Positions 1,856 to 53,036 of a stretch of DNA of 64,000 bases are shown piece by piece (the first letter of the stretch is position 1; each line of letters begins with the position of its first letter). The stretch is from an uncultured archaeon (GTDB taxonomy: Archaea > Asgardarchaeota > Lokiarchaeia > Sigyniarchaeales > SOKP01), in NCBI GenBank assembly GCA_964447495.1, contig CAYUTF010000002.1:32001-96000 (forward strand). Direction: 5' to 3'. A program made the translations under genes and the position numbers. The notes beneath the pieces were generated by a model that saw only the letters and a list, made by a program, of their open reading frames with translations, did not search any database and was not told the DNA's origin.

Positions 1856-4800
1856 TTATTTCAAATTACTTTTTATCACTTTGATATTGCTCTTCAAGAT
1901 TTTAATGAGAGGATGTTTATTGAATCCGCTCGAAACCAGAATTTTAAGAGCTTCTTCATGTCGGGTCATCGCTTCAGCATAACTTTTCTGATCTAAATAT
2001 ATCAAACCCATCTTATAATTAGTATCCGCTAATCCTCTTTTGTCATCTAATTTCTTAAATAAAGAAAGGGCCTCATTACACGTTTTCCATGCTTTTGTAT
2101 AATCTTTTTGATTGAGTTGGACTAAAGTTAAGTTATTTAAATATTCTGCCCTCTTGACTTCATCTTTTATTTTCCCTGCAATTTTTGCTGCTTCTTCAAA
2201 TCTTTTTGATGCAATATCATACTTCGCGTCATCTAAATAGATTAATCCGATGTTATTTAGACTTTCAGCTTTTCTTGATAAATTATTTAATTCTTCATCT
2301 ACTTTTAATGCTTCTTCAAAAGTCTTTAAAGCTTGAAGGTAATCTCCTTTATCTCGATATATTAGTGCAGTATTAAAGTAATTTACTGCTTTCTCTTCAG
2401 ATGATCCTAAGACTTTGAAGATTTTCACCGCTTTATCGTACCATTTTAGTGATTGTTCATAATTACCTTGATCTTGGTACACTAAGGCAATATTGTTCAA
2501 GCTCTCTGTTTTTCCAATTAGATCGCCCCTTTTTTCGAATAATTCTAAAGCTAAATTGTATCGTTTTAATGCATCCTTATAAATTCCAAGTTTGTAATAA
2601 CCCCATCCAATTTTATTAAATATTGATGCTTTCTTGTCTAAATCATCTAATTGTTTCGCTATTTTTAGTGCTTCATTATACCACTTTAAGGCTTCAGTAA
2701 AATCTCGTGAATTTTCATAAATGGACCCAATATTATCAAAACATTCGTAAATTCCTTCGAAGTTTTCAATTTCAACAAAGATTTTATAGGCTTGCTCATA
2801 CCATCCTAAAGCTTCCGTAAAAAGATTTTGTTCTTGATATAATTTACCGATTTTTCTTATAATTGTAGCTTGATTCGTTAAATTCCCTAATTGCTCCTCG
2901 ATATCTAATGCTTCTCGATAACTTTTTAGGACATCATCATACTTTTTATGTATAAGAAATATCGCTGCGATACTTGTAAGCCGTAACGCTTTTCCTTTCA
3001 AGTTAGCTAATTGTTCATCAATTTTCAATGCCTCTTCATACCATTTTAGGGCTTCAGGATAAGTTTCTTCATCATAATAAATATCTCCGATGCTATAATA
3101 GATATCTGCTTTCTTTTCAAGATTACCTAATTTCTCAGCAATATAAATCGCCTCATTGAACCGTCTTATTGCTTCGGGATAATGTTTTTGCGATTGATAA
3201 ATCTTTCCAATAATGGTTAATATTTCAACTTGATCTTCATAATTTCCCAGTTGATCAGCGATTATAAGCGATTCTTCATAATGCTTTAATGCTTCCAGAA
3301 AATCCCATTGATCTTTATATATGCTACCTATGATGTTTAAACAATGAGATTTTTTAGTTAAATTTCCAATTTGTTCTGCAATTTCAACAGCTTCTTCAAA
3401 TTTTTTTAAAGCTTCATCTAAATCGCCTAAATAATTATAATTCAAACCAATATAGTGTAGACTATCGATTTTTCCTTCCATATTTCCTTCAGCAGTAAAT
3501 ATTTCTAGAGCTTCTTCAAACTTTTTCAAAGCTTCATTATATTCTCCTTGATCTTGATAAATAGAACCAATTTTATTAAGTAAATCGGCTTGGTTTTCTA
3601 TTAAGTTTAAATTTGTGAATATATTTAAAGCATCTTTATATCTATTTAAAGCCTCTGTGAAATTCGCTTGTTCTTGATAATAAAATCCAATATTTTTTAG
3701 ACTTTCAGCACTTCCTTCAAGATTTTCTAAATCTTCATATACTTCAAGAGCCTCTTGGTAACTATTTAAAGCTTCACCGAATTTACGTTGTTCTAAATAA
3801 ATTTCTCCAATAATATTAAGAACTTCAGCTTTCCCTTTCATGTCCTCAAGAGCCTCATACATTTTTAAAGAATTGCCAAACTTTACTAATGATTTTTCAT
3901 AGTTCTTCTGTTTCTTATAAATTAGACCAATATTTACCTGTACATCTACTTTTCCTTTAAGTTTTCCAAGTTCCTCATATAATTGAAAAGATTCTTCAAA
4001 CCACCGTAGGGCTTCGTTGTACTTATCTTGTATATAATATATATTTCCAATCTGAAGAGAATAATCTGCTATTTGTTCTTTATTACCTTCTTCTTCAGCG
4101 ATAGAATATCCATCTTCAAATAATTCTAGCGCTTTTGGATAATTCCACTGATCGAGATAAATTAAACCCATATTTTTGATGGTTTTAAGTTTTCCGATAA
4201 CATTCTGATATCGCTCATATATCTCGAAAGCTTTATTGCATAATTCAATTCCTTTAATTGAATCACCATCTAGATGATAAACCATTCCTAATAGATTATA
4301 TATGTCTGCTTTCTCTTCAACATTTTCTAATTGTTCATTAATTTCTAATGAATCTTCAAGATATTGTATCGCTTTTTGATAATTTTTCTTAAAGTAATAT
4401 ATTTTTCCAATTTCTTTAAGATTTTTAGCTTTTTCCCGATTATTGTCGACCTTTTCGTTTATTTTAATTGCTATTTCATAGTTTTTTAGCGCGTCATCAT
4501 ATTTTTCTTGTTTACGATAAATACTGGCATAATGTTTCATAATCTTAGATTTTTCAGTTAAATCTTTAGACTTTTCATTTTCTTTAGATGCCAAATCAAA
4601 GTATTTTATCGCTTCGGAAAATTCATTTTGTTTTTGATTAATTAAAGCTATGTATTTAAAAATAGTACTTCTTTGAGCATAATTTTTTATTTTAATTTGA
4701 GCTTGTATTGCTTTTTGGAACCATTCTAATGATTTTTCATAATCCCCTTTATCAAAATTAATTTTACCCATTTCTACTAATGCTAATGATTTCCACACTT

Positions 4801-8975: not shown

Positions 8976-9710
8976 ATGAGCTCAGAACCAAATTTTAAAG
9001 ATTTAGAAAACGATATTACAGAAATTCTCGAAAAAGAGATGAAAGAAAATGCGGGGATTCTTGGAATAACAATTTCTTCTCATGGAGGTACACACTTAGC
9101 TAGTAAATTTAAAAAAGATATCGCTATGAAAAGAACTGAGATTTCAGCAGCAAGTAGTAGTTTAGTATTTTTATCTTCAAAAATGTTACAAGATGCATTA
9201 AATCAGAAAATTTCCTATAATTTGATTACTGGCAGTAAACGCATTATCCTATCAATCCTGACCGAAAATATAGCAATGATCTCATATTTAAATCGAGAAA
9301 TCGCTGAACTTGAAGGATTGGATACATATATCAACACTTTGAAAAAATTTTCCATGAAACTTTCCGCAATAATTGCAACATCAGATCTAATTAAAGAAGA
9401 GATTTTTGTTGCTATAAAGAGAGCAATTCCAAACGCTCTAGTAATAGCGATAATGACTAAAGATGGACTCCCCATTAAAATTCAATCAACGATGCCAGAA
9501 CCGATACTTTCCGCCATGACATCCGCAATATATAATCTATCAAGTGTTTTATTAGAAGGTGGTTTGGAATTCTCAATAATTGGGGGTGAAAATGGATCTA
9601 TCATTATCCATGAACTCGACAAAAATCGTATTATAGCAATTGCTGTACCTGAGGCGAATGAAAAAAAACTAGGAAGCTATATTGCTAAAATAAAAACTAT
9701 AATCGAATAA
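8976..9710 (+). CDS. Tandem roadblock/LC7-domain protein
   Basis: two ~120 aa units (ISSHGGTHLAS...ISAASSSL; IMTKDGLPI...LSAMTSAI...GENGSIII). Confidence 0.8.
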   Translation: MSSEPNFKDLENDITEILEKEMKENAGILGITISSHGGTHLASKFKKDIAMKRTEISAASSSLVFLSSKMLQDALNQKISYNLITGSKRIILSILTENIAMISYLNREIAELEGLDTYINTLKKFSMKLSAIIATSDLIKEEIFVAIKRAIPNALVIAIMTKDGLPIKIQSTMPEPILSAMTSAIYNLSSVLLEGGLEFSIIGGENGSIIIHELDKNRIIAIAVPEANEKKLGSYIAKIKTIIE

Positions 9711-49542: not shown

Positions 49543-51330
49543 TTATCCTTCTTTTTCAATATATTCTAAATTTTCTAAAAGAGATCTTAACTTTAAGGCA
49601 TTTGCACCTCCAGATACCTGTATATTAACTATTGAATCCTCATCCGTACCAGTAACATTGGTTTCGATTAATACCTTTTCTGCTCGTATCTGTTTTGTTT
49701 GCCGTTTACTTAATGCTTCTTTTAAGGGTTGATCCAAATTTGGAAATTCAGCAGCAATTTCTACCCAGACTTCTTTTTGATGAGAATATTTAAACGTAAA
49801 ATCTGAGACTGTTTGTTTATAAAGTTCTTGATCGCACCAATTAATTAGATAGGCTCTATTAGGAAATTCAAGATCATCAATTAAATTATTCCTAATTTCA
49901 GATAAACTTTTAATATCTCCATTCTTCACAGCGATATCTATTTTTCTAGCTAATTTTGAATACTTTTTTGCTTTTACTGATTTTATAAAAGAGATCAGAT
50001 CAAATTTAACTATTAAATCGTTCATTGCATAATTATCGAGCATTTTTAAATCATTTACTTCTGGAGTTCCATCACGAAAACGAGTAGCTATTTCATAACA
50101 GGGCTTTCGATTAATATATCGTTTCTTAATTTCTTCTAAAACATGTTTAGTAAACTCATATTTATTACCCCAGAATGGTGCTTTCTCCAATTCTCGTGAT
50201 GTATATTTCACGCGATGGGATATTATGTAAGGTGCAATTGTATTTACAATATTAATATCAACTATATTCAAGTTTAATAACCATGCTAAAGCTTTAGAAT
50301 ATCTAAGAAGATCTTTTGCTACTCTTACACTTAGAATGGAATCAATTTTATTGCAAACGCTTTGTTCGGTGTTGAAATGACATCCAGAACACAATCCAGA
50401 ACTGGGTTTGATATTTTCAGAATTCCCCTTATCTACGCGAGCACATAAAGTATATTCTCTTATTATTGCATGAATATAATTATTCACTTCTGTTTCGAAT
50501 TTCATCTTGTTTACATGGTACCAAATTTCCATGAGACCATCAATATGTAAGATTTTAGGTACTTCAATCAATTCATCATATCCAGAATATTTTTCGTCCT
50601 TTCCTGTAAGTATTAATGATAAATCATTACTTGTTGGCATTGAGATAGGAACTGATATTCCAAAACGATCTAGAAACGGTTGAGACAGTTTTCGAATAAT
50701 TTGGAAATCAAATTAAATTTCGAATGTCCCAACATCTTGTGGATTTATAGTAGCATAAAGCGTGTATTTTTCTATAGTATTAATGGCATCGTAATATTTT
50801 ACTTTTCCTTCAGCTAATAAGGATAAAAGAATATCTTGGGCATATGGTGTCAATCTGTTGACCTCATCGATAATTTTCCAAAATCCAGTTACAAATTGCC
50901 TCCAAACGACTACTTCTTCCCCGTCTTTCATTAACTTTCCTAATTTTAAAGTCCCTGTAAGTTTTTCTTCTGTGAGTTGCGGTTAGCCGTTAAACGCTGA
51001 GAGCGATTAACTATGACCCCTTACAATGGAACTTTCAATTTGATCCAATGTCATACCAGTGAACATCCTACCTAATAGTTTAACTAAAGTAGTTTTACCC
51101 CCACCATGTCCTCCAACTAATAACATAGCAGAGTTTGGTACTAGCGCATTTAAAACACACATAGATAAAATTTCAGGCAATGTATTTGTTATAAGCTTCT
51201 TCTTATCCTCATTAAAATATTTAACTTCCAAATTTTTAGAATGAACAAATAATTGATTTGCTTGGATGAGGTTAATAGTGTTCCATACTTTTTTTCTTAA
51301 TGATTCTTCTTCTCCTAATATATTTGACAT
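49543..51330 (-). CDS. MoxR-like AAA+ ATPase; three exons (51330-51013, 50982-50719, 50688-49543), 575 aa after removing two 30-nt introns
   Basis: Walker A GGHGGGKT, spliced RGHPQLTEEKL, Walker B IIDEVNR, spliced NPQDVGTFELSQPFLDRF; all exons in one frame and the only internal stops lie inside the two inserts. Confidence 0.88.
50689..50718 (-). other. Putative 30-nt BHB-type mRNA intron (intron 2 of the MoxR-like gene)
   Basis: AUUUAAUUUGAUUUCCAAAUUAUUCGAAAA; outer helix GUUGGGACA/UGUCUCAAC, central UUCG/CGAA, bulges AA^A and AA^C. Confidence 0.85.
50983..51012 (-). other. Putative 30-nt BHB-type mRNA intron (intron 1 of the MoxR-like gene)
   Basis: AGUUAAUCGCUCUCAGCGUUUAACGGCUAA; central GGUC/GGCU, bulges AU^A and AA^C, inner GUUAA/UUAAC plus CGCU/AGCG. 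Confidence 0.85.
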
Positions 51331-51443: not shown

Positions 51444-53036
51444 TTAAAACGTGTATTTTTTCCGTTTCTCGGGTAAAATAATGTTCCCTGAAAGTCCAAA
51501 TTCAGTAAAGGTTTCTGCATGCTCAGTATGCACTGGAATGATATTATCGGCTTGAATTGTGGATAACGTAGAAATCAAGTCCTCTACATTAACATGTCCC
51601 GAGGAATGGATGGTTTCAGTCTTGATAACACCAAATTTATTCAACCATGCATTTAATTTTTTATCTTGAATAACCATTTCTTCATTAAATGGATCTGTTG
51701 TAGAATTTATGAATAATATAGAATCTTGTTTCTGATCTAAATCAATTAATTCGTTCATCATAAAATAATCAAGATACATTAGGTACTTATCCGGCTCAGC
51801 TTTAACATCTTTATAATTGATATAATTTTCTTCTTTTAAAATGATTCGTTCAAATTTTTTATAATCTTCTGATTCGAATTTACCCCATCCTTTCCGTGGT
51901 AAATAAATCGATAAAAAGTCATCATTAAATTCAGGTAAATTGTAATCTCTATAAAATTCTTTAATATTTTCCTCCTCCATCTCATCAAGTTTTTTCTTTA
52001 ATGATTCAATATACATATGAATTTTTGGAGTTATAGCAATAATACGGTTATTTTTCTTAGCCAAATTATAATATAGTAAGAGTCTATCAAGATTTCTGGA
52101 TGGATAATTGAATAAAATTAAACCATGATAGTTATTAATTAATTCTCCAGAAATCTCTTGGACATCTTTCTCCGATTGAGTATCATCTTTAAATTTTTCA
52201 TTCTTAAAATCCTCAACAGAAGGCACACGTGTTCCTTCTGTGATTATTGTTATAGGATTAGACTTTTTAGCATTATTAATAAAAGTTCTTACCCAATCAC
52301 TATGTAATCCATGTGTTCTAAAATCTCCGGTATAAATGATACTTCTTCCGTCGTGTTCTATAATATAGGAACATGCTCCTGGAATGGAATGGTCTACAGG
52401 ATACTGCGTAATTTTAATCTCTCCATTAGATGTATTAAAGAAATAAGGCTTACTAGAATCCATCAGTTTAATTTTCCTTAAACAATCGTGTTTCTTATAA
52501 TCAGTTCTCTTTGCTCTTTTATATTGAATTTCATCATTAGTTTTTTGCTTCTTTTTTGGAACTTGCTTGAATGCCTCATAAAAATGCAAAATCTCAGGAA
52601 CTAATGGATCAGAAGAAATTTCATCTAAATAATTAGCAATTGCTTCTGTTATCCAATTCATATATATTGGGGTACTTTTCTTAAGGAAGCCTAAGAACTT
52701 ACAATGATCTAAATGTGCGTGAGTTAGAAAACAAGCATCGATTAGATTATCATCAGAGGGCGTTATATTGTATCTTCCTGAACGTAATTTTTCTTTAAAT
52801 GGTAGAATAAAATCATTTCTGTATATTTTATTGATTGGAGGGATAAGTCCTAAATATAAATAGTCAATAACACCATTAAATTTTCGAGGATTGAGGAAAT
52901 TTGAAAAATATTGATTCATATCTTTAAAGGATAATCCAAAATCAAAACAGAAGGTTTTATCTCCATTCTTTATAAAGATTTTATTTCCTCCAATCTCGTT
53001 TATACCACCATATATAGAAACTTGCATGAAAAACAA
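51444..53036 (-). CDS. RNase J-like MBL-fold hydrolase
   Basis: GGINEIGGNKI, THAHLDH, VDHSIPGA, YTGDFR, HSSGH, PVHTEH. Confidence 0.85.
   Translation of the reverse strand: MFFMQVSIYGGINEIGGNKIFIKNGDKTFCFDFGLSFKDMNQYFSNFLNPRKFNGVIDYLYLGLIPPINKIYRNDFILPFKEKLRSGRYNITPSDDNLIDACFLTHAHLDHCKFLGFLKKSTPIYMNWITEAIANYLDEISSDPLVPEILHFYEAFKQVPKKKQKTNDEIQYKRAKRTDYKKHDCLRKIKLMDSSKPYFFNTSNGEIKITQYPVDHSIPGACSYIIEHDGRSIIYTGDFRTHGLHSDWVRTFINNAKKSNPITIITEGTRVPSVEDFKNEKFKDDTQSEKDVQEISGELINNYHGLILFNYPSRNLDRLLLYYNLAKKNNRIIAITPKIHMYIESLKKKLDEMEEENIKEFYRDYNLPEFNDDFLSIYLPRKGWGKFESEDYKKFERIILKEENYINYKDVKAEPDKYLMYLDYFMMNELIDLDQKQDSILFINSTTDPFNEEMVIQDKKLNAWLNKFGVIKTETIHSSGHVNVEDLISTLSTIQADNIIPVHTEHAETFTEFGLSGNIILPEKRKKYTF

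Follow-up and report, generated by a model that had tools for sequence, protein, structure and literature searches.

A probable 30-nucleotide bulge-helix-bulge intron in the coding sequence of a MoxR-like ATPase gene from a Lokiarchaeial archaeon

A 30-nucleotide (nt) segment within the gene for a MoxR-like AAA+ ATPase of a Lokiarchaeial (Asgard) archaeon is very probably an archaeal intron of the bulge-helix-bulge (BHB) type, embedded in the coding sequence. The segment, referred to as intron 2 in the following, lies at positions 50718..50689 on the minus strand of a 64,000-nt stretch of DNA (the window; contig CAYUTF010000002.1 of assembly GCA_964447495.1). A first-pass annotation, made from the letters of this DNA, had already placed such an insert here, and its coordinates prove exact. 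The intron reading proposed there is borne out by the canonical geometry of the BHB and by the exact coincidence of the insert with a 10-codon gap in 14 of 14 orthologues. The gene carries a second insert of the same length (intron 1), and its parts are given below; Walker A, Walker B, sensor and ...NP...DRF serve as motif names.

49543..51330, minus strand: MoxR-like AAA+ ATPase gene with two interruptions, present as three same-frame open reading frame (ORF) pieces; 575 codons after removal of both 30-nt inserts
51013..51330, minus strand: exon 1, with the Walker A region, ending ...RGH (from the sequence and the orthologue alignment)
50983..51012, minus strand: intron 1, 30 nt, a relaxed BHB; 10-residue gap in 14 of 14 orthologues; in-frame UAA twice
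50719..50982, minus strand: exon 2, 264 nt or 88 codons, with the Walker B and sensor region, ending ...GTFE (from the sequence and the alignment)
50725..50733, minus strand: 5′ strand of the outer helix, GUUGGGACA, codons Val-Gly-Thr; 9 of 9 paired here, 90% of cells paired in 10 alleles
50721..50724, minus strand: UUCG of exon 2, the 5′ half of the central helix; base-paired in all 10 alleles
50720..50718, minus strand: 5′ bulge AAA, with the predicted cut between 50719 and 50718
50689..50718, minus strand: intron 2, 30 nt, made up of one nucleotide from the 5′ bulge, then a 23-nt hairpin, the CGAA strand and two nucleotides from the 3′ bulge
50691..50694, minus strand: 3′ strand of the central helix, CGAA, in intron 2; pairs with UUCG at 50724..50721
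50690..50688, minus strand: 3′ bulge AAC, with the predicted cut between 50689 and 50688
50679..50687, minus strand: 3′ strand of the outer helix, UGUCUCAAC, codons Leu-Ser-Gln-Pro; partner of 50733..50725
49543..50688, minus strand: exon 3, LSQPFLDRF... to the stop codon (from the ORF list and the alignment)

The structure that the annotation had described is present base for base: an outer helix of 9 base pairs (bp), a UUCG/CGAA central helix, two bulges and a 7-bp inner stem that follows two U-U oppositions. The outer helix, which pairs exon with exon, consists of eight Watson-Crick pairs and one G-U pair, and a scripted parse of the inner stem gives it a loop of 5 nt. On both strands the bulge lies 3′ of the 4-bp helix, and the 3′ bulge abuts the exon-exon helix; the 4-bp helix itself joins bases of the 5′ exon to the 3′ end of the intron, as in the layout of pre-tRNA introns. 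Folding of the 71-nt region gives a z-score of −4.6, with none of 200 shuffles equally stable. An in-frame UAA, likewise claimed at the outset, is the second codon of the insert.

In the read-through translation, both inserts appear as stretches of 10 residues, after ...RGH and ...GTFE, and both coincide exactly with gaps in all 14 aligned orthologues. Cuts after the second bulge nucleotide take out precisely these 10 codons at intron 2 and give the anticipated TFE-LSQPFLDRF, whose GTFE/LSQPF junction is present in every aligned orthologue. It is because of the two 30-nt inserts that the read-through measures 595 rather than 575 amino acids (aa); the 120 orthologues listed have 565–584 aa, mostly 575. 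Ten extra residues at this site, which the annotation had named as a sign against splicing, occur in none of the 14 orthologues, all of which have the gap, and no other full-length match in 122 genomes of the class has 30 extra bases without a stop.

The fold is also maintained across 10 alleles of intron 2, which form a gap-free alignment of about three sequence types. Of 220 alignment cells, 91.4% are paired, compared to 28–55% when the 3′ partners are slid by 1–3 columns, with values of 90% for the outer helix and 88.9% for the inner stem. None of 500 shuffles reached the covariation score, and double-sided changes are seen in four pairs. Compensatory changes occur in all three helices, so the covariation that had been proposed as a check is indeed found. 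In the central helix, a CG/UA swap divides the alleles 5:5, so that a synonymous Phe codon change on the exon side is matched by a substitution on the intron side; the outer helix shows one UA-to-CG double change, in the metagenome locus L036, where a synonymous Val change is accompanied by a Gln-to-Arg change; and the inner stem has double changes in two pairs. A stop stands at codon 2 of the intron in all 10 alleles (UAA in six and UGA in four; alignment columns 31–33, window positions 50712..50717), and the A/G difference between the two codons is itself one of the compensated stem positions. The conservation of this stop could reflect selection against the translation of unspliced mRNA, or simple descent.

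The pairing between two coding exons had led the annotation to suggest that codon choice is constrained by structure. In the 10 intron-bearing alleles, the nine exon-exon positions are paired in 81 of 90 cells (8.1 of 9 per allele), whereas in 28 intron-less orthologues, a comparison set that leaves out locus L029 (unmatched by the search expression), the mean is 5.4 of 9 with a range of 3–7, and in 27 of these 28 there are just 0–1 contiguous pairs adjoining the junction. The Gly codon is GGG in every intron-bearing allele, but in 5 of 28 intron-less orthologues, and CUG or UUG directly follows the junction in 8 of 10 and 2 of 28, respectively. The differences support a tie between intron 2 and its exon context. 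The suggestion is partly supported; selection on the codons is not separated from co-inheritance, because the alleles share ancestry and recombination seems to carry the intron along together with the adjoining exon bases.

We propose that, in the pre-mRNA, nine bases of exon 2 would pair with nine bases of exon 3, and that UUCG, the last four paired bases of exon 2, would find its partner in the CGAA close to where the intron ends, leaving a 3-nt bulge on either flank of the 4-bp helix. EndA, presumably a two-subunit enzyme here, would cleave after the second nucleotide of each bulge, and RtcB would then join the exons, so that the conserved GTFE/LSQPFLDRF would be restored between the sensor region and the arginine finger. 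The second 30-nt intron of the same gene, with a weaker outer helix, is situated 264 nt upstream.

We infer EndA and RtcB as the enzymes acting on intron 2. In the genome of the archaeon (the host genome), contigs C196 and C3 each carry a gene for an EndA paralogue; the two proteins, 201 and 205 aa long, match PF01974 at 104 and 69 bits. One RtcB, encoded on contig C15, matches PF01139 at 561 bits. One of the EndA paralogues is closest to chain B of the tRNA-splicing endonuclease structures 3p1z and 3ajv in the Protein Data Bank (PDB; E = 8e-36), and the other is more divergent, with 1a79 as its best match (E = 1.4e-20). The second paralogue presumably lacks the catalytic His, as judged by eye against the motif. 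In PMC5829648, Asgard archaea are assigned an (alpha-beta)2 EndA with a loop that is linked to broad specificity, and the two paralogues fit this enzyme.

Part of the window is contained in 24 sequencing runs, two of which are RNA runs; we examined these two and two DNA runs. The DNA contigs from runs X3 and X1, of which X1 may be where the window came from, follow the window collinearly and retain intron 2. In RNA run X16, a single contig of 224 nt (depth 2.5, no mismatches) extends for 112 nt on each side of a joint. On the plus strand, it covers 50900..51011 and then 50718..50829, that is, it goes back 294 nt, with one shared base; in the sense of the gene, exon 2 runs to its final base, 50719, and is followed directly by 51012, where intron 1 begins, or both ends lie one base further. 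Both ends coincide with the 5′ cuts predicted for introns 2 and 1, and the 3′ sites are not observed in this contig. The fragment of 294 nt comprises intron 1 and exon 2, either as a circle or joined head to tail, and likely stems from a molecule that was cut at both 5′ bulges, left uncut at the weak 3′ site of intron 1 and then sealed by the ligase. The other RNA run, X17, yielded one adapter-flanked piece of 136 nt within exon 2, which carries no junction information. We attach no evidential weight to the lack of RNA coverage over the remainder of the gene.

Several points weigh against reading the insert as a spliced intron. The minimum-energy fold of the window allele is not the canonical BHB, but a form in which the central helix extends to 6 bp (UUCGAA/UUCGAA; −21.4 kcal/mol) and which is about 4.6 kcal/mol more stable than the canonical 4-bp form (−16.8 kcal/mol). 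The 4-bp central helix of the annotation is therefore to be kept as the canonical, in-frame form, and not as the one of lowest energy. The 10 alleles are related to each other, and their covariation rests on few events. Furthermore, the RNA support consists of one low-depth contig from one run, and this contig shows an off-pathway circle of intron 1 and exon 2 and no mature mRNA. No RNA piece spans 50719/50688, where the annotation had asked for a junction read, the three pieces from the two runs all lying inside exon 2 and intron 1 at thin coverage; since none crosses this junction, we infer the productive joining of exon 2 to exon 3. Lastly, a scan for canonical BHB geometry combined with ORFs (introns of 12–150 nt; contigs C1–C80 of 223) gave 24,805 candidates with the true geometry, whereas a control with mirrored geometry gave 25,003; at no threshold did the true geometry stand out (for instance, 145 versus 137). 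The scan can therefore not count further introns and gives no sign that coding-sequence introns are common in this genome. With respect to the fold, the minimum-energy structure of the G089-type allele is the canonical BHB. Moreover, the 4-bp register alone yields an in-frame product and also fits the RNA junction, whereas the 6-bp register would shift the cut of intron 2 by two bases, to between 50717 and 50716, in disagreement with that junction.

Among the alternatives, the one that survives best, improbable as we consider it, takes the EndA sites as real but lets them mainly destroy or throttle the mRNA, with productive joining rare and with circles and fragments as the main products. The sole RNA junction is indeed a dead-end circle of intron 1 and exon 2, and incomplete cutting is plausible because the outer helix of intron 1 is weak. 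However, a gene that is only destroyed would decay, and all three exons are under strong purifying selection: the ratio of nonsynonymous to synonymous divergence (dN/dS) is about 0.04–0.13 in four pairs of intron-bearing and intron-less genes, with dN 0.096 and dS about 1.9 between an intron-bearing gene and L003, and dN 0.017 and dS 0.395 between L039, which has the intron, and L007, which does not. At both insert sites, moreover, the cuts bring back the reading frame with codon precision. Since a circle should persist longer than linear mRNA, finding one says little about flux.

The same selection bears on the idea, very improbable in our estimate, that the gene is a pseudogene and the insert an unremoved insertion scar or a small mobile insertion. 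In-frame stops do split the gene into three ORFs, and the insert is patchy among relatives; yet there is no other stop or frameshift in the 575 codons besides the inserts, and purifying selection on the intron-bearing genes speaks against a decaying pseudogene. In addition, the BHB is kept with compensatory changes in 10 alleles, an RNA end falls on a predicted cut, and a blastn-short search with both introns found no further copies in the host genome. We give still less credence to an artefact of assembly or library preparation. The window does come from a metagenome-assembled genome, and the RNA junction from one contig at depth 2.5, but the insert is found in two DNA runs, seven metagenome contigs and three species genomes, and the RNA joint, with its 112 matching bases per side, no mismatch and one shared base, has both ends on predicted cut sites, a coincidence for which we estimate a chance of about 2 in 100,000 in a 1.9-kb stretch. 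Scarcely credible is, finally, that ribosomes hop over the insert, in the manner of phage T4 gene 60, or translate past its stop: the stop does come after the first insert codon, with a hairpin next and UUCGAA at both ends in the window allele, but a ribosome that landed on the downstream GAA would continue with AAC and so miss the frame of LSQPF, the repeated GAA is missing in G088-type alleles, a single recoding rule does not fit because the stop is UAA in six alleles and UGA in four, and read-through would place ten extra residues between the sensor motif and the arginine finger.

The intron reading of the insert extends to other members of the gene family. Intron 1 of the window has a central helix GGUC/GGCU, bulges AUA and AAC and a 23-nt inner hairpin, and we regard it as a relaxed BHB because its outer helix has only one contiguous base pair. 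It recurs at the same site in genome G118 (locus L005) and in the metagenome locus L036, which has both introns, as the window does. Matches to the gene were obtained in 108 of 135 genomes of the family, the host genome counted, and in 122 of 161 genomes class-wide. Stops interrupt the match in the host genome, in G018, G088, G089 and G118, and in an additional, incomplete copy of the gene in G071, but in none of the 16 matches outside the family. By tblastn, the inserts lie after residue 106 (G118), after residue 194 (G088 and G089) and after residue 78, inside the Walker A motif (G018); all of them are 30 nt long, stand between codons and parse as 1 + 23 + 4 + 2 nt. A fixed-gap pattern scan added seven further alleles of intron 2 on metagenome contigs, and two genome records that it also returned merely repeat G088 and G089 (nine loci in two scans). 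Intron 2 is thereby present in three species genomes, including that of the host.

The introns at the three sites of the gene family (window intron 1, L005, L036 and L031) are unrelated in sequence and constant in size; a heptamer, CUCAGCG, is common to intron 1 of the window and the G018 intron when compared by eye, offset by one position. The second gene copy in G071 (L032 4931..5571, G071:C132) is a pseudogene fragment and was dismissed as an intron case: it lies about 2.7 kb from the intact gene, has a frameshift near residue 23 and is truncated soon after LDRF.

On a quick maximum-likelihood tree of 41 orthologues, the distribution of the introns requires at least six state changes for intron 2 and at least three for intron 1. 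Identical introns occur in L039, L040 and L044, which sit in different subclades. Upstream of the intron, L039 resembles L044 and L040 (57–60 of 60 positions in three windows) more than its tree sister L007 (47–52 of 60). L040, in turn, is L044-like over the intron window (56 of 60), but from 60 nt downstream it is L023-like (58–60 of 60), with just 44–52 of 60 positions shared with L044. From these window-by-window identity mosaics, we conclude that recombination, with its breakpoints next to the intron, either transfers the intron or removes it. With intron-bearing and intron-less alleles a few per cent apart and the breakpoints adjacent, the gain and loss of BHB introns becomes directly approachable here.

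In the BHB scan described above, intron 2 had the top helix score (outer 9 + inner 7), tied with one low-complexity site that turned out to be a plain gene boundary; a top-scoring site on contig C16 was rejected as the end of a gene followed by the start of a signal peptide. For the whole host genome, we listed open segments of 80 codons or more that share a frame and lie no more than 21 codons apart; introns with a length not divisible by three would escape this list, as would relaxed BHBs. It comprises 536 segment pairs, 223 of them with some BHB-like pairing. After intron 2, which has the best helix score here too, the 10 best candidates were compared to Pfam as read-through translations, without finding a domain that spans the junction: eight matched families and two had no match, and since the matched domains lie on one side of the junction or the other, the eight look like ordinary neighbouring genes. 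A single stop codon separates 265 of the segment pairs, which are probably for the most part tightly packed neighbouring genes; any case of stop-codon recoding, or an intron of minimal length, would go unnoticed among them.

Two features of contig C16 came up as well. Around positions 9400..9650 of its plus strand, BHB-like hits with spacings of 34–124 nt form a cluster that suggests a tandem repeat region, and the protein encoded at 2932–4434 on the minus strand, which is predicted to be secreted or lipoprotein-like, contains long Asp-Thr/Asp-Ser/Asp-Ala repeats and is rich in Cys towards its C-terminus. ARAGORN with intron calling reported 56 tRNAs in the host genome, 15 of them with introns of 7–807 nt; we judged these calls too unreliable and did not use them. 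They include introns of 670 and 807 nt (tRNA-Lys and tRNA-Val) and of 128 nt (tRNA-SeC), which may be genuine or spurious.

The read-through translation of the host protein, with stops written as X, matches the Pfam family AAA_5 (E = 1.4e-7; 32 bits, cut-off 22), and AAA_3 scores 18.2 bits in the interrupted read-through, under its cut-off of 27; most orthologues among the 120 matches listed carry PF07726 and PF07728, and the NCBIfam models gave no match to the host protein. The motifs GGHGGGKT, DEVNR and LDRF are invariant across the host protein and the orthologue alignment. The best relatives, again among the matches listed, are Lokiarchaeota/Promethearchaeota proteins named MoxR or AAA family ATPase, with at most 82% identity. 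Gene callers break such genes apart, and the MoxR-like gene accordingly appears as three ORFs. The host genome comprises 3.81 Mb in 223 contigs, is 98% complete and has about 30% G+C; no archaeal small-subunit ribosomal RNA was detected in it, and Rfam and tRNA scans of the whole window returned no match. Immediately upstream on the same strand, a gene at 51444..53036 (minus strand) has weak matches to Lactamase_B_2 (metallo-beta-lactamase fold) and RMMBL, which is an RNA-specificity domain according to its description. These matches hint at a putative RNA-metabolising nuclease adjoining the intron-bearing gene.

Taken further, these findings lead us to a more general proposal, which we put forward tentatively, as a possibility with the odds rather against it: Lokiarchaeia may possess a class of 30-nt, between-codon, stop-bearing BHB mini-introns in coding genes, which are polymorphic in populations, are spread or lost by recombination together with flanking exon bases and occupy at least three sites of one gene, and for which the processing of a two-intron pre-mRNA by EndA and RtcB also yields an exon-containing circular RNA. 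If this were true, multi-intron mRNA splicing with circular by-products would exist in the closest archaeal relatives of eukaryotes, and the stop would have been retained by selection because it prevents a poisoned hexamer subunit from being translated from unspliced transcripts. Intron 2 in itself would mean that mRNA splicing by protein enzymes is used in the lineage nearest to eukaryotes, and would offer a concrete case in which an RNA structure required for splicing is located in the codons of a conserved active-site region.

Work by Watanabe in 2002 and by Yoshinari in 2006 is said to have described a BHB intron in the cbf5 pre-mRNA of Crenarchaeota. According to PMC2738675 (Yokobori 2009), the introns of cbf5, which encodes a pseudouridine synthase, are cut between the second and third bulge residue, and they resemble intron 2 in being BHB-like coding-sequence introns that are linked to a hetero-oligomeric EndA, obey the same cut rule and are gained and lost among relatives. 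The hosts, however, are Desulfurococcales and Sulfolobales, as opposed to Asgard archaea of the Lokiarchaeia with a MoxR-like ATPase gene. Also, cbf5 has a single site, in the codon of the catalytic Asp, whereas the MoxR-like family has three sites, with at most two introns per gene. Most cbf5 introns are unconventional BHBs, according to the same paper, whereas intron 2 is canonical, with a 9-bp exon-exon helix; and, unlike in cbf5, the introns of the MoxR-like family are all 30 nt long and stand between codons. In the openly accessible full texts that we searched, no protein-coding gene of an Asgard archaeon is reported to contain a BHB intron. Crenarchaeal cbf5 is the sole example they give of BHB introns in archaeal coding sequences; where recent papers on the endonuclease turn to pre-mRNA, their references are confined to the cbf5 work, and the Asgard papers among these texts treat tRNA introns only. 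Compared to cbf5, the new elements are a second host gene, a new phylum, two introns per gene and three sites in the family.

With pre-tRNA BHB introns, intron 2 shares the outer helix formed by exons, the 4-bp helix in which bases of the 5′ exon pair with the last part of the intron, the two 3-nt bulges and the inner hairpin, and the same enzymes, EndA and RtcB, would be expected to act on both. In pre-tRNAs, however, a tRNA body can aid recognition, whereas the exons of intron 2 are codons, its outer helix being formed by those for Val-Gly-Thr and Leu-Ser-Gln-Pro; the in-frame stop that is kept in 10 of 10 alleles likewise sets it apart. Excised pieces of pre-tRNA BHB introns can be circularised.

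A more distant parallel is the splicing of HAC1 and XBP1, in which a short mRNA segment is also removed without a spliceosome, by a protein endonuclease that acts on paired structured sites. After cleavage by Ire1, joining is by a tRNA ligase or, in animals, by RtcB; published abstracts mention both XBP1 and RTCB. HAC1/XBP1 splicing differs in that it relies on Ire1 stem-loops and constitutes a regulated, frame-changing stress switch, whereas here we have a BHB and an in-frame intron. Among the EndA-dependent circular RNAs of archaea, BHB-linked circles of rRNA have been reported, and the 294-nt joint has the form that would be expected of EndA-type ends closed by RtcB. Circles of excised archaeal introns, by contrast, do not have the composition of the 294-nt circle, which contains a coding exon and an uncut intron; as its two ends are the 5′ cuts of separate BHBs, it is to be seen as a by-product of partial processing and not as an excised intron. 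Set beside these systems, the presence of two introns within a single gene, the three sites across the family, the constant size of 30 nt, the conserved stop, the recombination-linked patchiness and the exon-containing circle are the unusual features of the introns described here.

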